A program made the position numbers and the translations under genes. 34,592 bases of DNA from a virus (taxonomy: Duplodnaviria; Caudoviricetes), in IMG/VR virus record IMGVR_UViG_3300011335_000743, positions 1 through 34,592 of that record; one strand, 5' to 3'. Of the stretch, positions 2,298 through 31,088 are shown piece by piece. The notes under the pieces are model-generated. The model worked only from the letters and a program-made list of their open reading frames with translations, did not search any database and was not told the origin of the DNA. Position 1 is the stretch's first letter. Each line of letters starts with the position of its first letter.

Positions 2298-2650
2298 AAA
2301 TAAAGTGCATTTTATACCCAGAGTTAGAGATTGATGAAAACGCAAGAGTTTACTATGTCCCTACAGGGAAGGAGATTTTTCCAATCAATGACCACTCTTT
2401 AAGTATAAATGGTCCTGTGGTTTATTATCGTCACAACGGAAAAATCAAAAATCTCTCTCTGCGATCCCTTTTTTATTCTGCTCACATTAAAGGTTGCAAG
2501 ATTAGTCGTGGCGACACAACAGAACCAAAAAATGGTGATTATTACGATTTAAGTCCAAATAATTTTTACACAAAAAGACCTGATAAAGTTATTAAGTGTG
2601 AAGAATCTTATTCATGTTGGCTTAATGGTAATGTGGAGCTTTTTTGTTAG
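2294..2650 (+). CDS. Degenerate NUMOD4/HNH-like protein (catalytic His absent)
   Basis: Aligns by eye with ORF 347-883: LEIDENARV~YFVSNFGRV, NGKIKNLSLRSLFYSAHI~DGKYLDKKVHRLVAEAFI, TTEPKNGDYYDLSPNNF~TVNHKDYNGFNNHFSNL. Confidence 0.6.
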   Translation: MKIKCILYPELEIDENARVYYVPTGKEIFPINDHSLSINGPVVYYRHNGKIKNLSLRSLFYSAHIKGCKISRGDTTEPKNGDYYDLSPNNFYTKRPDKVIKCEESYSCWLNGNVELFC

Positions 2651-2934
2651 TAGGTCATACAATAACAAAAAAAGATAGTGGACCAATTAAACTAACTGTA
2701 GGCGAAGAAGTAGCTGAGATTGAAGTCTCTTGGCATAAAACCTCAGCATCTAAGGTATGCCTTACAGTAAAAGCATCTAAGGAAGTTGATGTTTTATTTC
2801 CAAAAACAATGAATAAATTTTTAGAGCGCATTAGGTTTTTAGAGAATGAACTAAAACTTGCAGAAGAATTTGTAGACAAACAAAAGCAAATATTTTTAGA
2901 AGAGTTTAAAAAGCTAAAGGATTTAAATGAGTGA
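2644..2934 (+). CDS. Divergent CsrA/RsmA-like protein with C-terminal coiled coil
   Basis: TITKK...IKLTVGEEVAEIEV...SKVCLTVKASKEVDV parallels CsrA LTRR..ETLMIGDEVTVTV...NQVRIGVNAPKEVSV; TTG start. Confidence 0.5.
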   Translation: MLVGHTITKKDSGPIKLTVGEEVAEIEVSWHKTSASKVCLTVKASKEVDVLFPKTMNKFLERIRFLENELKLAEEFVDKQKQIFLEEFKKLKDLNE

Positions 2935-3013
2935 CAAAATCATGGCAGTTTATTTTGTAATGGTTGTAATATTATCTGCAGTGGTTGCTTATAACACTCC
3001 TATAGGATGGTAA
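2927..3013 (+). CDS. Small single-TM peptide, 28 aa (MSDKIMAVYFVMVVILSAVVAYNTPIGW)
   Basis: AAGGA RBS; fills the gap between flanking genes; hydrophobic core. Confidence 0.55.
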   Translation: MSDKIMAVYFVMVVILSAVVAYNTPIGW

Positions 3014-3015
3014 AA

Positions 3016-3447
3016 ATGAGATTTAGAAACTGCATCATCGGCAAAGAGTTGTCACATCCAATCCAGATAGCCGAGTCACTTTTAACACCTTACTCAATTA
3101 TGACCAAAGAGCTTCAGAAAAATGCAGAAATATTTAAATACGACACTCCTAGTAATTTTTTAGAATTGCTACTTAAAAAGAAGGAACCCATCAGTGTGTT
3201 TACTTACCGTTCCAAAAATCCATGGTCTAAAGTTGTTGGTTATTACGCAGACGGGAAAATTTATTTTAATATTAGAAAGCTGCCAACTATGGATAAGCTA
3301 GATCTAATTGGTTTCTTACTCCACGAATATGCTCATTACTCTGGGCTTCATCATGGAACTGGACCTTTAAAAAATTATATTACAGAAGACAAACTTAAAT
3401 ACTCAGTGCCATACTACCTATCTGAAAATGTCAAAAAATGGATTTAA
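3016..3447 (+). CDS. Zinc metalloprotease-like protein (HExxHxxGxxH)
   Basis: LLHEYAHYSGLHHG motif preceded by VVGYY...IYFN strands; start likely 3016 (track gives 3007). Confidence 0.75.
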   Translation: MRFRNCIIGKELSHPIQIAESLLTPYSIMTKELQKNAEIFKYDTPSNFLELLLKKKEPISVFTYRSKNPWSKVVGYYADGKIYFNIRKLPTMDKLDLIGFLLHEYAHYSGLHHGTGPLKNYITEDKLKYSVPYYLSENVKKWI

Positions 3448-3448
3448 A

Positions 3449-3571
3449 ATGGAATTTATTATCATTGGATCTGTGTTCATAATACTGGGTGCAGTAATCA
3501 TCTACAATCAAGTCAAAATTATGACAGAGCAAAAAGAGCAGAAGAAAAAATTGAACAGGATGAAGATTTAA
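3449..3571 (+). CDS. Small single-TM peptide, 40 aa (MEFIIIGSVFIILGAVIIYNQVK...NRMKI)
   Basis: ATG 1 nt after the previous stop; N-terminal TM helix and basic tail. Confidence 0.6.
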   Translation: MEFIIIGSVFIILGAVIIYNQVKIMTEQKEQKKKLNRMKI

Positions 3572-3640
3572 AGCGGTAACGTGGTCACATCCATGTTTGC
3601 ACGTCACCGCCTGAGGATTTATGGGCAAGCGAGCGCCTGC
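3570..3640 (-). ncRNA. Candidate small structured RNA (or 3' hairpin of the late transcript)
   Basis: GC-rich intergenic island. Minus-strand 11-bp stem GCGGUGACGUG/CACGUUACCGC and 6-bp stem GCAGGC/GCUUGC each need a G-U pair, so they are perfect only on the minus strand; apex reads ACAUGGAUGU. Confidence 0.5.
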
Positions 3641-3674
3641 AATTATAGTTTCAACCCTTTAATAAGTTGAGTCA

Positions 3675-4076
3675 ATGCTAACTACACCCACAGAAAAACA
3701 AATTGAGAACCAGATTTTAACCTATTTAAGAAACAGAAGGGTTTTTGTCTGGAAAAATCAATCTGTCGGTGTCTTTGATCAGAAGAAAAACATTTTCAGA
3801 CGGTCTAATAACCCACATCACATTGATGGTGTATCCGACATTCTCGGTCTGTATGAAGGAAGGTTTCTTGCTATTGAGGTAAAGCGTCCAACTGTTTCAA
3901 AAAAGACAGGCAGGTTTATTCACAGAACGCAAGAGGAATTACTTGAGAAAGCGAGTCCTGGGCAAGTTACCTTTATAGACCAAATTAATAAATCAGGTGG
4001 ATGCGCTTTCCTTGCAGATAGCTTGGAAGTAGTTAAAGAGCAGATGATTCTTTACTTTCCTTCGTTCCAAAATTGA
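3675..4076 (+). CDS. VRR-NUC / PD-(D/E)XK nuclease, probable Holliday junction resolvase
   Basis: TEKQIENQI...GVSDILG...FLAIEVK...Q..F...I...GG motifs. Confidence 0.9.
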   Translation: MLTTPTEKQIENQILTYLRNRRVFVWKNQSVGVFDQKKNIFRRSNNPHHIDGVSDILGLYEGRFLAIEVKRPTVSKKTGRFIHRTQEELLEKASPGQVTFIDQINKSGGCAFLADSLEVVKEQMILYFPSFQN

Positions 4077-4483
4077 GCAAGGGTAAAGTTTGGGCAAGTT
4101 TTTCCTGGATCTAATGTTCTGTGCAGAATCACATCACTTTTAGTCAGATTATATTTTTTCAATAAATCGATGATTAACTTTCTGCCAGTGATAAACTGAT
4201 CGGTATGGAAATCTTTAAAAGTTCTTCCAGAAAAACAGATCCCTATGCTAAAGCGATTATGGTTCTTAATGTGGGCTCCGACATATTGCTCGTCTCGCCC
4301 TTTATGCAAAATACCCTTTTTATCTATGAACCAGTGGTAGCCAACATCGTCTTGATTTCCTTTTATGCCATCGGGACCAGTGAAACCTCTCAACGTATGC
4401 CATTCTCTGATTGTGTTGATGTTATCGTGTAATGGCTGATCTGAATCAGAACAATGCAAAGCGATAAACTTTATCTTTCTCAT
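4052..4483 (-). CDS. Endolysin, N-acetylmuramoyl-L-alanine amidase (T7 lysozyme-like)
   Basis: IALHCSDS, DVGYHWFI, GAHIKNHN..SIGIC and HRTLDPGKTCPNF zinc-amidase motifs. Confidence 0.95.
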   Translation of the reverse strand: MRKIKFIALHCSDSDQPLHDNINTIREWHTLRGFTGPDGIKGNQDDVGYHWFIDKKGILHKGRDEQYVGAHIKNHNRFSIGICFSGRTFKDFHTDQFITGRKLIIDLLKKYNLTKSDVILHRTLDPGKTCPNFTLAQFWNEGK

Positions 4484-4662
4484 TTCTTTGCCTCTAATAG
4501 GGTAATTATTTTTTGAATCAACAAAGCTGTTTTAGTGTCATTGTTTTGCAATGCTTGGAACTTTTGAGCAACTAACCTAGTTAGTGTGTCAGATTTATGG
4601 CAACTCTCTTTTTTTAAAGATAAATCCTGCTTCGTAGAATCTTCTGATTTTTTCTTTTTCAT
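4480..4662 (-). CDS. Hypothetical 60-aa protein coupled to the endolysin
   Basis: ATGA overlap with the amidase start; SD-like AAGGATGTGAT ends 8 nt upstream of the ATG. Confidence 0.5.
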   Translation of the reverse strand: MKKKKSEDSTKQDLSLKKESCHKSDTLTRLVAQKFQALQNNDTKTALLIQKIITLLEAKK

Positions 4663-4900
4663 GAAACTTAATCACATCCTTGTTGATTATTATTTCATAT
4701 TCTTTACACCATACCAGTATTTTTCTCTTACAAGCACCGATAGTAGCCCACTGGTATTCTAAGCCGTCTAAAGTTTCACTTATCCTGTAAGTTCTGAGTT
4801 CGAATGAAGGAGGTGTAATCGTGGAGGTAGTTGCGCAGCTCAAATTGGATATGATCAAGAACAGCATCAGAACGAACGGACGGATCTTTGTTGTATTCAT
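4595..4900 (-). CDS. Lipoprotein in lysis cassette (possible o-spanin-like)
   Basis: Basic n-region, hydrophobic FVLMLFLII, lipobox-like NLS-C; overlaps both neighbours. Confidence 0.65.
   Translation of the reverse strand: MNTTKIRPFVLMLFLIISNLSCATTSTITPPSFELRTYRISETLDGLEYQWATIGACKRKILVWCKEYEIIINKDVIKFHEKEKIRRFYEAGFIFKKRELP
4669..4689 (-). promoter_or_regulatory. CsrA/Rsm-type binding hairpin over the RBS of the 60-aa lysis-cassette ORF
   Basis: UAAUC-A-AC-[AAGGAU]-GU-GAUUA; matches the (A/U)CANGGANG(U/A) consensus with GGA in a hexaloop. Confidence 0.5.
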
Positions 4901-9456: not shown

Positions 9457-11237
9457 GGCGCAGTTCCTTCACATTTAATTTGCAAGTATGCTGTGGCTTG
9501 TGTTCCTGCTGAGTTTGTAGACAATAAGTTAAAATTCAAACCACCCGTTGAGTTAGATGCCCAACCAGTATTCCCATTAAAATACGGATCACATTGGCGG
9601 TCTTGCCCTGAAGTAAGATCCCATGCAACACATGAACAAGTTACTAGTGAACTATTTGCAAAAGTACCTGAAGCAAAAGTCATGTTTTGATAAAGAGCCG
9701 TGGTTGCCCATGTTGGTGCGGATCCAGTTCCACAAGTATCAACTACCTCAACACAAGTTCCTGTTGTACATTCTGTCGGGCTTGCAAGAGTTGCAGAAGC
9801 ACCACCGAAAGCATAATAACAAGTTTTAGGCTTAGATATTCCTGGAGTTGTCATTACTTCGTTAAATGTTCCTGTGATTGTTTTACTAGCTACAAAATCT
9901 GCACCTTGTTTTTGGCACATAACTTGAATATTGTAATTGTTTGCAACTGAATTATAAGTTGTAAACCCTGTTGATGTTGCTAGGATTTTACAATCGCCTA
10001 CACTCACTTGGTTAGAAATATTGCATAAACAGTTTGGAGTTGTGGTAAAAATTCCAGAGTTAAAAGTACAAGATGACTCACCCGGGTCTGTATCTGTGCA
10101 AGTCGCAGGAAGCCAATCTGCATTTTCTTCTGTTACCGCATCACCATTGTTGTTTATTTTTGCACTAAACACATCAATATTATTAATACCTGCAGTTGTT
10201 GTATAGGTAGAATTAGATCCGTAATATTCAAGAATAAATCTAGATGAGATTCTAGGTGAGGCGGATGTGTCACTTGAAATAGTAATAGTGTTAGCAGTAG
10301 ATCCTGCATAAAGTTCAAAAACTCTATTTCCTGCAGAAGTATAATTAAAAGTACATTCAACCATTAATCCAGTGTATTGACCTATGCCACCTGTTTGTCC
10401 GTATTGAGGTTCACAGGTAGTTGTTCCATCATTAATAGCAAAACCAGAGTTTCCACTTGTAGCAAGAAATGTTCTCACCATGAATTTAGCTTTATAAGTT
10501 CCTGCAGGTAAGTTGTTTACAGTTATTCTAGGAAGGTCTGAGTCAGTAGTTTGCCAAGCACCTAGATTTTGCCTTACGATTGTTGGTCCGGGACAAGCTG
10601 CTACAGTGCCAAATGCTCCTACCGTAGTAGAAGTTCTAGTCCAGTTACAACTTGTCGTACCTGCAAAATATGCTTCACCTGCTAATTTAGCTTCAGAACT
10701 AGAATTTAAAATATTAGAAACACCAACATAAGATTCATCAACATAAACTGTACCCGTAATTGATGTAGAGTTTGAGTTAATTGAAATACCTTGAGAAGTT
10801 GCACCTGTGACAAATGGAATTTGATATAGACCCCATTTATCATTACCCTGCACACTTACACACAGGCTTGTGATAAGAACACCTGCTTGCCTAGGGCATA
10901 CTCTAACACCTGCTACGTTTGATTTGATCTTTACAGTTAAGATTGCCTGCATACCGTCAGCAAGTTGAGAGGCAAATATTGTCGAATCTTGATAAAAGTC
11001 CATAGCTTGAGAGGATAAGACCACCTTTCCAGATGCTTTACCTTGGACAAAAACAGAATAATCTGCAGTAAATGTTCCTGTGCTGTTTGTCCACTTACCA
11101 ATTCCTGATTCAAAACCCGGATTAAGTAATAAATTGTTGTCTTGTAGGTATTGTCCTGTAACAGATGATACTTGTGCTTTTGACATTGTAGTCAAAAATG
11201 CAACAGCCCAAAAAAGTAAAAATAAGTTTTTAATCAT
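9453..11237 (-). CDS. Cys-rich tail-fibre/adhesin-like protein with signal peptide and CBM-like N-terminal domain
   Basis: MIKNLFLLFWAVAFLTTMSKA signal-like N-terminus; NLLLNPGFE CBM-type start; T/G/S-rich; 20 Cys by my count. Confidence 0.7.
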   Translation of the reverse strand: MIKNLFLLFWAVAFLTTMSKAQVSSVTGQYLQDNNLLLNPGFESGIGKWTNSTGTFTADYSVFVQGKASGKVVLSSQAMDFYQDSTIFASQLADGMQAILTVKIKSNVAGVRVCPRQAGVLITSLCVSVQGNDKWGLYQIPFVTGATSQGISINSNSTSITGTVYVDESYVGVSNILNSSSEAKLAGEAYFAGTTSCNWTRTSTTVGAFGTVAACPGPTIVRQNLGAWQTTDSDLPRITVNNLPAGTYKAKFMVRTFLATSGNSGFAINDGTTTCEPQYGQTGGIGQYTGLMVECTFNYTSAGNRVFELYAGSTANTITISSDTSASPRISSRFILEYYGSNSTYTTTAGINNIDVFSAKINNNGDAVTEENADWLPATCTDTDPGESSCTFNSGIFTTTPNCLCNISNQVSVGDCKILATSTGFTTYNSVANNYNIQVMCQKQGADFVASKTITGTFNEVMTTPGISKPKTCYYAFGGASATLASPTECTTGTCVEVVDTCGTGSAPTWATTALYQNMTFASGTFANSSLVTCSCVAWDLTSGQDRQCDPYFNGNTGWASNSTGGLNFNLLSTNSAGTQATAYLQIKCEGTAP

Positions 11238-13676: not shown

Positions 13677-16550
13677 TTAAGTTCGATAAAGAACTTTATC
13701 AAGTCCCGATTGCTCTCGGCTTGATGATTTTATATTTTTTGCCCCTACAGAAGAAACTCTTCTCTGTGGTTGCATATTTTGGACTTCTTTTTTGATTTGC
13801 ATCCCACTAAATTGCTGTAGGATATTAAACCCTGTCGGCGTAAACGCTTTCCTAGTATCAAGTCCAAGAATTACAGATAAATTTGCTTTTTGTTTCTCAG
13901 TTAGTTTTTTATTAAACTCAGGCAATCTCTCTGCGAATTCTTTTTGTATTTCTTCTGCCATTCTAGGGTAAACCGCCCTAAATGCTTCCATGTATTCAGG
14001 AGCAATGTACCCCGATGCAATACTGTTCATGACCTTATAAGGCTTCTCAACGGCATCAACATAGTTTTTAAATTTCATTAACTCAGATCTTGATATTGTT
14101 CCATCATCAAAAGGTGTAATTTGCTTTTTAGGAACCTTAGTAGATAGAAATGCAGCTGCATCCATTATCTTAGCACCTAAAGCACCTGCAGTTTTAGGAG
14201 CAGATTCATAAAGTGCTTTATTGTTTTTGTTGTAAACCTGAATGATCTCTTGTGGGTCCTGTTGATAATATTCAACCTTTTTTTCAATCTCTTTTACATC
14301 ATCATCGGACAAGTCTTGACCTGTAATGGTTCTATTGATTGCCTTAGTTGATAATGATGCAGACTTTTTGAAGAAGTTTTCTACTGAATCAGATATATTA
14401 AACTTTCCTTTATTAACTGCTTTCTCAAGAGCTGCGTTTGTAGGGATATACTTAGTCATCTGACCAAGCATACCTTTTGGGCCTGATCTGTAAACCATAT
14501 ACCTAAACATCTCTCTGGATTGATATGCAAGTTGAAACATATTCTGAAAACTCATGTTAACAGAAGTGTTAGATGGGTTCATATCAGGAGGTAAGTTGTC
14601 CACTATCTTAGAATAGTCAGCAATTAGTTTTTTCGGATCTGTTAAATGAGGAGCTAGTAGCTTTAATTGTGATTCTTCTAATTTATTTAGCTCTGTTTTA
14701 AATATTTTAGGACTGAATTTTCCAGTTTTAGATGCTTTTTTCTTTATGTCGTTAAGCAATCTTGCTCTAACTAAGTCTGCTACTTCAGGAAAATATAATT
14801 GTAATTTTTCAATATCTTCTATTTTTTTAAGATTAAGAAGTTTGTCAGCTATTTCAGTAGGTTTAACATCATTTAATCTGTTCATTAAATTTGTTAAATT
14901 TTCTGTTTTGAACCCTAGGTAATCACCTAGAAATTTGTATTTTTCGTGTGTAGAACGCCATATACCGTCTGCAGTGTTTAAAGCTGTAAACAAGTCATCG
15001 ATTTGTTTTCCCTTAGCAACAAAAGGTTCTGCCTTAAAATTAAACTCTATTGCATTTCTTCTTAACGTATCGAGTCTGTCATATAAAGTTTTAAAAAATG
15101 TAGTACCGTTTTTATCTCCTGCTCTTTGTGCCTTAGATAATTCATTCCCGATAATTGTTCTATATTCTTTAATTTTATTATAGGAATCTTGCTTACTAAT
15201 AATCTCAATATATTTTTTAGCGTTTGGAACTATATCAATTAAAGGTAATTTTTTTAATTCTGTCTGAAATCTTTTTCTGAGAGATTCGGTTATAGGTAAA
15301 TCTCCTGCTTTTTCATCAATAACTTGATACAAAAAAGATCCAGGCTCTAATTCTTCTGATATTTTTGCCTTTATCCCATCAATTGCATTAATTCCTATAG
15401 TGGACTTATCAACATCTGCAGCGTCTTTTATTATTAAATTGGTCACATTATCTAAAGCATCATGAGTTTTTTGTACTTCCTTTCTAGTGAGTATACCGCC
15501 AATGCTCGATTCTTCTTTAGCTAATGATCCTTCTAGTTTTGCAAACGCCCCACCTTCTTTCATACCAGGAGTAAGTGGAACACCTAAAGCACCTGCAGCT
15601 TTTTCCAATTCAATCTTGTCTGCAATTTCATCTGGACTTGCACCAAGTTTGGTCATTATTTCTTCAACGGACTCCTCATTAGATAGCCGAGTTAAAACAT
15701 CTTTTTGGATTTGCTTGTCTTCAATACCAGAGAAGACCTTTTTCATTGTTTCGGTGTATTGCTTTTTAATAGCCTTAGCACCTTCTCCAACCATTCCAAA
15801 CGTTCCGCCTGCTACAGAGCCAAAGATGCCACCAATCAACGCACCTTGACCCATACCTGCCAGAGCAGTCTCAGCATTAAACTCAGCATCTCCCAGTGCA
15901 TCCTCAGATATAACATCGCCCACACCAAAGAAAGCACCTTCAACCGCAGACCCCGTTCCAATCTTTACCGCCTTATCAACAACCTCTTTAGTTATGTTTG
16001 ATGCAGTTTTAGATAATACCTTCCCAGTAATAGAAGGAGCTAACTTAGCAGCAGCGGCAACACCTGCACGTTCTGCTAGTGCTGCAGGAGTAGCAGCAAG
16101 TAATCTTGCACCTACACTTGTACCGCCTGTAAAAAAAGCAGGAGCAATCGCACCTGTAATTTCAGAAGCACCTGAGATGATCGGATTCGCTTCTTCTAAC
16201 GCTTTTAACTTCTCAGCGCTTGTGATCCCAGTGCTCGTAAGGATCTGATCTGTTAAGCCTAATGTAAGACCTCTCAACCCAGAAACTGCAGCTGCTTTAA
16301 AAGGCTCGTCTTCTGCTTCTGCAAACAATTCTTCTTTTTGAATTTGTTTTTGTGAAACGTGCTTAAACCCTGCGTCTATTGCATCAAAAACTTGATCTGA
16401 AGGAACCAGTCTTCTTTGACCTTCATTGTCTTCAAACTCTAATTCTTGACCTTTGAGAATAGAATACTCGCCAGAATTTAAAAGATTGGGCAATCCGCCA
16501 TCTTCAATCTTTTCTAACTTACCTGTGCGATTATTTCTAACCTGGATCAT
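13677..16550 (-). CDS. Large internal virion / DNA-ejection protein
   Basis: 957 aa; Gly/Ala-rich hydrophobic N-terminal third, helical remainder; podoviral ejectosome position. Confidence 0.65.
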   Translation of the reverse strand: MIQVRNNRTGKLEKIEDGGLPNLLNSGEYSILKGQELEFEDNEGQRRLVPSDQVFDAIDAGFKHVSQKQIQKEELFAEAEDEPFKAAAVSGLRGLTLGLTDQILTSTGITSAEKLKALEEANPIISGASEITGAIAPAFFTGGTSVGARLLAATPAALAERAGVAAAAKLAPSITGKVLSKTASNITKEVVDKAVKIGTGSAVEGAFFGVGDVISEDALGDAEFNAETALAGMGQGALIGGIFGSVAGGTFGMVGEGAKAIKKQYTETMKKVFSGIEDKQIQKDVLTRLSNEESVEEIMTKLGASPDEIADKIELEKAAGALGVPLTPGMKEGGAFAKLEGSLAKEESSIGGILTRKEVQKTHDALDNVTNLIIKDAADVDKSTIGINAIDGIKAKISEELEPGSFLYQVIDEKAGDLPITESLRKRFQTELKKLPLIDIVPNAKKYIEIISKQDSYNKIKEYRTIIGNELSKAQRAGDKNGTTFFKTLYDRLDTLRRNAIEFNFKAEPFVAKGKQIDDLFTALNTADGIWRSTHEKYKFLGDYLGFKTENLTNLMNRLNDVKPTEIADKLLNLKKIEDIEKLQLYFPEVADLVRARLLNDIKKKASKTGKFSPKIFKTELNKLEESQLKLLAPHLTDPKKLIADYSKIVDNLPPDMNPSNTSVNMSFQNMFQLAYQSREMFRYMVYRSGPKGMLGQMTKYIPTNAALEKAVNKGKFNISDSVENFFKKSASLSTKAINRTITGQDLSDDDVKEIEKKVEYYQQDPQEIIQVYNKNNKALYESAPKTAGALGAKIMDAAAFLSTKVPKKQITPFDDGTISRSELMKFKNYVDAVEKPYKVMNSIASGYIAPEYMEAFRAVYPRMAEEIQKEFAERLPEFNKKLTEKQKANLSVILGLDTRKAFTPTGFNILQQFSGMQIKKEVQNMQPQRRVSSVGAKNIKSSSREQSGLDKVLYRT

Positions 16551-30266: not shown

Positions 30267-30354
30267 TGGCGGAGAGAGTAGGATTTGAACCCACGGATCC
30301 TTTCAGACCTTCGGTTTTCAAAACCGACGCAATAGACCACTCTGCCATCTCTCC
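30267..30354 (-). tRNA. trnS: tRNA-Ser (anticodon TGA), CCA encoded
   Basis: Acceptor GGAGAGA/TCTCTCC plus GCCA; anticodon arm TCGGT-TTTGAAA-ACCGA; long variable arm GGTCT-GAAA-GGATC; T-loop TTCAAAT. Confidence 0.95.
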
Positions 30355-30356
30355 GA

Positions 30357-31088
30357 TTATTTTTCCTCACAAAAAATACCACACTCAATAGCTTTTTTGC
30401 TCGATTTATATTTAACATTGTCAGGAACTTCATCTAAGAATAATCTTTTACCTTTATGCTTAACCAGTCTAACGCCTATACGTTTTGATTGCTCATCACG
30501 CTGATCCCAAACATCTTTAAAGGTACTTTTAACTAGGTTCCAATATCCTGGACTAGATGACTTCACACATCCAATACAGTTTGCATTAGGAAAACCTAGT
30601 GAATAAATTTTTGGTAATTCAATCCCACTCTCTTTTATAATATTAAAGCAATCTGCCTTGGTTATTTTTAAGTCAATTAATACAGGTAAAACGTTTGATC
30701 TTTCAGTTAAAACAAATCTTTCATGCCTTTTAACTTCATCAAACGTAAACCCTAAAACATGATGATCTGGTTTATTCAACAATTCCCATTCTTGCCTAGC
30801 TTTCTTTTTTAGCTCTTGAGTGCATGGCGCACCACGGACGCCTGACATATACTTCTTTTTTTCCCAAACATCATAAGCACTGGCACTTGGGTATTTAGAA
30901 TTGTGTGCAAACTCTATTTTTACACCTAACCAGATTTCAACATTTTTTAAAAATCTAAGATTGTCTTCATGTTCTTCTTTTACAGGATTGTTAATGATCC
31001 TTATCTCATGATCTTTGCCATATAACTCAATAGTTTTCTTGGCAGCAACTGCAGACGCAGCACCACATGAGAACCAGACAGCTATCAT
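30357..31088 (-). CDS. PAPS-reductase-like adenine nucleotide alpha-hydrolase, Cys-rich
   Basis: PP-loop-like WFSCGAAS; APCTQELKK, NANCIGCVK and C-terminal ECGIFC. Confidence 0.8.
   Translation of the reverse strand: MIAVWFSCGAASAVAAKKTIELYGKDHEIRIINNPVKEEHEDNLRFLKNVEIWLGVKIEFAHNSKYPSASAYDVWEKKKYMSGVRGAPCTQELKKKARQEWELLNKPDHHVLGFTFDEVKRHERFVLTERSNVLPVLIDLKITKADCFNIIKESGIELPKIYSLGFPNANCIGCVKSSSPGYWNLVKSTFKDVWDQRDEQSKRIGVRLVKHKGKRLFLDEVPDNVKYKSSKKAIECGIFCEEK

Follow-up and report, generated by a model that had tools for sequence, protein, structure and literature searches.

Phage genes for CsrA are already known (PMC8450108, PMC7366521); they are common, and their targets are mostly unexplained. 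In E. coli CsrA the replacement R44A removes regulation (PMC7652899; PMC6692469), and full repression of glgC is not reached by engineered dimers in which one of the pockets carries R44A (PMC7652899). CsrA represses the lysis gene of ColE7 through a stem-loop together with the Shine-Dalgarno (SD) sequence of that gene (PMC2896534), and a preprint on TldR describes a CAAGGAUG stem-loop, in chromosomal loci, that is bound by a CsrA (10.1101/2025.07.22.666180). The present work concerns the IMG/VR record IMGVR_UViG_3300011335_000743, a complete 34.6-kb phage record bearing terminal repeats (34,592 nucleotides (nt); the whole stretch is called the window below), in which a gene for a predicted CsrA-fold protein without R44 accompanies two minus-strand hairpins, A and B, with GGA in their loops. 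Comparison with related phages suggests that a CsrA-type protein likely controls late messages here. What is new here is that hairpins with conserved loops go with a family lacking R44: among the matches listed from the open-access literature, the phage csrA allele supplements of PMC7366521 and PMC8450108 aside, there was neither an R44-less phage CsrA nor a CsrA-controlled phage endolysin, and the published surveys use Pfam or PSI-BLAST matches, which this family escapes.

The open reading frame (ORF) at 2644..2934 on the plus strand starts with TTG, 5 nt downstream of GGAG, and encodes 96 amino acids (aa); residues 1-65 are predicted to form a five-strand-plus-helix fold, and a long helix is predicted at residues 54-95. 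Its 73 variable positions in four close genomes are distributed 14/7/52 over the three codon positions, and it is therefore a coding gene. A preliminary description of the locus had pointed to a CsrA-like strand pattern in this ORF with Leu-Phe at the His-Arg position; both are present (ASKEVDV-LF aligns with APKEVSV-HR of CsrA), and the pair is lost family-wide. The family comprises 18 sequences in the working alignment, or 30 distinct ones once cluster members are added. Every member whose DNA was viewed lies on a phage-like contig, and no member was found in the GTDB genomes searched. At the R44 position, which was assigned through sequence alignment, the 30 distinct sequences have Ile (22), Phe (6), Thr (1) or Ser (1), and none has Arg.

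Sequence profiles scarcely connect this family with CsrA. Pfam, PHROGs and NCBIfam gave no CsrA match for the window protein; two of the 18 members touch the Pfam CsrA profile weakly (E 0.03-0.04), P0007 with 14.2 bits against a cut-off of 27, and one of three members scanned reached 14.5 in NCBIfam against a cut-off of 73. Sequence searches of the PDB and the ESM Atlas returned nothing usable for the ORF, and profile iteration in a word-limited search stayed within the family, with no Pfam-annotated CsrA among the matches listed. When the family profile was aligned with that of 70 CsrA sequences, hhalign gave a probability of 21% and a score of 22.9 over 22 columns only, a score that none of 200 column shuffles reached (their maximum was 17.8). 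With the full-length model the long helix dominated the searches, and therefore residues 1-65 were folded alone, from an alignment without any CsrA (predicted local distance difference test score 82). The top eight Foldseek rows for this model are CsrA, RsmA or RsmE (probability 0.66-0.96, E 0.11-0.55). Realignment to CsrA gives Z 6.5 and a root-mean-square deviation (rmsd) of 1.9 over 58 residues, the next unrelated structure having Z 3.0; among 48,161 representative solved chains, two CsrA entries take ranks 1 and 2 (Z 6.1 and 4.9, the best match with rmsd 1.9 over 56 residues), followed by an unrelated chain at 2.5. Though Z stays below 8, the predicted match extends over the entire small domain and is well separated from other chains, and structural comparison, of the kind proposed in the preliminary description, supports a CsrA fold for the modelled protein. 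Both outer strands are extended in the monomer model, as in single CsrA chains; the homodimer prediction score of 0.21 is uninformative either way. The protein is thus predicted to be built like CsrA, yet it falls below the curated family profile and lacks R44.

The two GGA motifs lie on the minus strand at 3587-3596 (hairpin A) and 4674-4683 (hairpin B), each at the apex of a stem (-22.4 kcal/mol, z -3.9, and -8.9 kcal/mol, z -3.1, respectively). The stricter pattern ACANGGATGT, which was chosen after the sites had been seen but is close to the consensus published from SELEX (in vitro selection of ligands), occurs twice where 0.26 occurrences are expected (3 of 100 shuffles), and two motifs that both top stems of at least 13 pairs are obtained in 12 of 300 shuffles. 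By themselves these window statistics are marginal, and therefore conservation carries the case for the hairpins. The comparison used three close relatives (L001, L003 and L093) and two intermediate ones (L176 and L177), which are counted as one lineage and have the gene order of the window with 73-74% DNA identity over the lysis genes. ANGGAN, the loop signal of CsrA operator hairpins of the hcnA type, is found in the hairpin loop of both A and B in the window and in all five of these relatives, so that the two hairpins that had been claimed are not only present but also conserved, the arms of A being rewritten and the stem of B covarying.

Hairpin A (3573..3610, minus strand) has an 11-bp intergenic stem with GGA at 3592-3590 in its apical loop; a small 6-bp hairpin located 5' of it (3625..3640, minus strand) is part of the same conserved element. 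In four close genomes, three of three variable stem pairs of hairpin A hold on the minus strand (five of five with the small hairpin included); the five are held via G-U, and for each there is a genome in which the plus strand does not pair, although the test rests on one-sided changes among related genomes. In L176 the place of hairpin A, at equal distance from a conserved anchor, is taken by a different 19-pair helix, with z -4.7 on the late strand vs -0.9 on the other. Its arms share only 7 of 33 bases with those of the window, and the loop core shares 6 of 7. The arms have been rewritten and the loop has been kept, and therefore the loop sequence is likely to be under selection. The pattern of hairpin A has one further exact match, the third, in L099; this contig is GC-rich and unrelated, and the match was put down to chance and set aside.

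As to what hairpin A might do, the terminator scan did not call it as an intrinsic terminator, and its U run is broken in L001 and L003; it matched no Rfam family, and no start codon lies within 30 nt of it. The recombination genes and small genes are on the plus strand, up to 4076, and the head, tail and lysis genes are on the minus strand, down to 4052, so that the region of the CsrA-fold gene and the hairpins spans the convergence point of the two sets. The end of the amidase gene runs into the nuclease gene, and therefore the gap with hairpin A is the first one met by late read-through, which would run antisense over the nuclease gene to reach it; hairpin A likely lies close to the late transcript's 3' end. 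A decoy of the CsrB kind, as had been suggested, is not borne out: the element offers one site, it has no Rfam match, and the five GGA in 483 nt, one of them in the intergenic element, are at the level of the strand as a whole, 11.9 per kb. A separate small RNA at hairpin A is unproven, the minus-strand TATAAT at 3647-3642 having no matching -35 and not being called as a promoter.

Hairpin B (4660..4699, minus strand) has GGA at 4679-4677 in the loop and pairs the ATG of a 60-aa gene (4480..4662, minus strand) at the base of its stem. It lies inside another gene, a lipoprotein-like ORF of 101 aa (4900-4595, minus strand; signal and LSC box recognized by eye) that was absent from the preliminary description, and its motif spells the codons N-K-D-V there. 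The lipoprotein-like ORF has no significant family match and may have a spanin-like role. Hairpin B varies at 1 of 37 bases in three close loci and four contigs that span the stretch fully or partly, compared with 18 of 76 directly upstream (p 0.006); for third positions the numbers are 1 of 12 and 13 of 24 (p 0.011). The single variable base changes U-G to U-A. When L176 and L177 are added, all 70 cells are paired and 2 of 14 pairs have changed on both sides; their loop, of 9 nt, keeps AAGGAAG.

The 60-aa ORF is a real gene to judge from its substitutions (2/1/19 by codon position) and from homologues with 43-58% identity in the more distant phages L009 and L010. The protein has a UVR-like look, for which Pfam gave no match, and its ESM Atlas matches stay below 0.8. 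The claim that hairpin B covers the SD of this gene is clear for the start codon, which is buried in the stem, and less so for the SD itself: the GGA lies 14 nt before the ATG, a longer spacing than the approximately 5-10 nt at clear SD-like sites in this phage. The 60-aa gene is probably the direct target of hairpin B. As a separate observation, the minus strand has seven A in a row at 4609-4615, shortly before the lipoprotein gene ends, and a +1 slip there would speculatively lead into the 60-aa frame.

Within a 957-aa late gene lies a new candidate, hairpin C (13965..14013, minus strand), whose stem of 19 pairs carries the loop C-AUGGAA-G. Its 35-nt core is invariant in three of three genomes covering it and 56 of 57 cells are paired (z -3.0), with one compensatory pair and one break; the plus strand folds almost as well.

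The loops are canonical and the phage protein is not, and therefore the reader is expected to be a canonical one, likely the CsrA of the host. The explanation that we put forward, tentatively and well short of confidence, is that such a CsrA binds the GGA hairpins and that the phage protein without R44 pairs with host CsrA and weakens its grip. On the one hand, sequence comparison shows that hairpins A and B are preserved as structures of the late strand, their apex reading A-N-G-G-A-N-G; on the other hand, the CsrA fold of the phage protein is a prediction, and the subsequent steps are conditional. CsrA at hairpin B would clamp the stem that buries the 60-aa start codon and reduce translation, whereas hairpin A, near the 3' end of an abundant late transcript, would be a single binding or stability site and not a sponge. 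As the phage subunit accumulated, mixed dimers with one RNA pocket lost would form and repression would ease, which would amount to a delay of late genes. The distribution of the protein fits a target other than these hairpins, for example host CsrA, since two distant phages that do not have them keep the protein: the L009 and L010 genomes, where the CsrA-fold gene is still present, have no ACANGGATGT among the matches listed. The further-reaching proposition, that a dead-pocket CsrA mimic poisons host CsrA via mixed dimers and that the conserved GGA hairpins time the release of late and lysis genes, we regard as unlikely.

Several observations weigh against host CsrA acting at these hairpins. 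The count of WCANGGANGW, proposed as a check, revealed no enrichment (2 seen, 3.45 expected; 86 of 100 shuffles reach 2). ANGGANG at stem apices is found 4 times in the window against 1.8 expected (2 of 30 shuffles), 5 against 1.9 in G002 (1 of 30), 7 against 4.0 in G003 (3 of 30), 5 against 2.6 in G004 (5 of 30), 2 against 0.7 in L176 (4 of 30) and 1 against 1.3 in L181, and no broad genome-wide regulon emerges from this survey. The strict ACA..UGU consensus is lost in L176 and L177, where hairpin A closes with U-G and the loop of B departs from it as well. Covariation controls for hairpin B are modest (15 of 500 shuffles, with L176 and L177 being one lineage), and its codons match those of L176 no better (6 of 8) than the codons upstream do (4 of 4). 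What preserves the GGA of B may be a role in an SD, or else the Lys-Asp/Glu codons, AAG accounting for 135 of 326 Lys codons. In L009 and L010 no such hairpin is present at the homologous 60-aa start (z about +0.5), which has plain SD-like sites, and the amidase has an SD-like site of its own both in the window and in L176. For the fold itself, the Foldseek E is 0.11 or worse, the hhalign probability is 21% and Z is below 8. The presence of CsrA in the host is assumed, the amidase relatives obtained in the host search having just 27-48% identity, and at the time of PMC7366521 a demonstration of mixed dimers of natural paralogues was still lacking.

The phage protein could itself be the reader, if its homodimers had a pocket so remodelled as to bind GGA loops, and thereby kept leaky late translation down. 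The gene and the hairpins co-occur in five of five near or intermediate relatives covering them, basic residues remain in strand 1, and the loops of L176 drift off the strict consensus alongside the protein (48% identity). Recognition of bases by RsmE goes through backbone groups (PMC7652899), so specificity could survive the loss of R44. We nevertheless find this reading doubtful: R44A abolishes regulation by E. coli CsrA, and the family is hydrophobic at that position with an invariant Asp three positions before it; the family also occurs in G003 and G004 without these sites, and the window survey noted no GGA hairpin at the start of the CsrA-fold gene itself.

It is rather unlikely that the hairpins work without any CsrA, with B as a start-occluding stem that is opened by ribosomes translating the lipoprotein gene, its GGA as the SD, A in 3'-end stability or processing, and the CsrA-fold protein unrelated to both. 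The loop and 3' arm of B fit an extended SD at 10 of 11 positions, but the GGA is then 14 nt from the ATG. The location of A in the first gap reached by late read-through, the different structured element carried by L009 and L010 right after the amidase and the lack of enrichment of the loose motif agree with this explanation; it leaves unexplained why A, far from minus-strand starts, keeps 6 of 7 loop positions on arms that share 7 of 33, and why hairpin C stands within a coding region.

The amidase endolysin (4052..4483, minus strand) shares an ATGA overlap with the 60-aa gene, kept in close relatives and in L176, and the preliminary description had accordingly proposed that hairpin B gates it. 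This gating is weak because the amidase has its own SD-like AGAGG (4495-4491) and because adjacency to the 60-aa gene is lost in the three more distant phages compared, a phosphoesterase-like gene intervening in L009 and L010 and the 60-aa homologue of L181 being on the other strand; hairpin B may touch the endolysin only indirectly. The full circuit, in which CsrA at B gates the endolysin by translational coupling, A is a titrating decoy and lysis time is set, is therefore improbable in spite of the conserved overlap and the ColE7 precedent, since A moreover offers one site. Taken as a whole, the preliminary description is supported in its fold, its loss of His-Arg, its 60-aa gene and its conserved hairpins, and it is weak in endolysin gating and unsupported in the CsrB-like decoy; the findings it had named as computable grounds for abandoning it did not appear.

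Other features of the region are mentioned briefly. A VRR-NUC-like nuclease gene (3675..4076, plus strand) overlaps the end of the amidase gene; preceding it, GAGG and an ATG open a 13-codon frame (3621-3674, plus strand) in frame with the nuclease gene, a possible leader that is open through in L001 and stopped in the window, L003 and L093. At 3007-3447 a 146-aa protein without a family match has a HEYAH motif, which we take to be zinc-protease-like; in L009, L010 and L176 a similar gene is located not far from the one for the CsrA-fold protein. A tRNA (Rfam) is located beside a PAPS (3'-phosphoadenosine-5'-phosphosulfate)-reductase-like gene and a DNA methyltransferase (30270-30354 and 30357-31088). 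In L009 (13250-13120) and L010 (13215-13085) a multi-stem element is shared on the minus strand directly downstream of the amidase stop. Its arms appear to covary, some short motifs in it are conserved, Rfam has no match for it and its folding z is near 0; it is possibly a new RNA at the late 3' end. L009 further has a long stable hairpin at the convergence point (13075-13005, minus strand, z -5.8) with no GGA in its loop, and L176 is highly repetitive at 10748-11179, with open frames on both strands.

Together with three short RNAs, this protein, with its predicted CsrA fold and natural lack of R44, forms a set that can be tested with E. coli CsrA. A positive outcome would reveal natural mixed CsrA dimers, or a reading of GGA without R44, and a translational layer in the control of phage late genes; on the further-reaching proposition above, a virus would supply a global RNA regulator with a dominant-negative subunit that profile searches do not see.

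The closest relatives of the protein are CsrA, RsmA and RsmE (PF02599; PDB 1vpz, 2bti, 2jpp), with which it shares a predicted succession of five strands and a final helix (53-58 residues aligned, rmsd about 2), Ala at the A36 position in 28 of 30 sequences and hydrophobic residues at the V40 and V42 positions. It differs in its identity of about 16%, in scores below the Pfam and NCBIfam cut-offs, in the change of H43-R44-E45-E46 to L-(I/F)-P-(S/K/N), in invariant Trp, Asp, Pro and Thr, and in a helix 20-40 residues longer. Known phage CsrA/RsmA homologues (PMC8450108, PMC7366521; 88 GenBank phage records) likewise place a CsrA-type gene among non-structural genes; they are found by the Pfam model and have 48-100% identity to bacterial CsrA among the matches listed, whereas the present family escapes that model and is without R44. 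Like the CsrB and RsmZ sponge RNAs, hairpin A shows GGA in a loop outside a coding region, but it offers a single site where they have many repeats, it matched no Rfam family, and no promoter was found. The ColE7 lysis gene cel (PMC2896534) differs in that CsrA binding has been demonstrated there and acts directly on the lysis gene, whereas the phage site precedes the 60-aa gene within a coding region and A and B are 1.1 kb apart; what the two have in common is a GGA stem-loop, with an overlap of the SD that for hairpin B is a possible one, in the lysis module of a mobile element.

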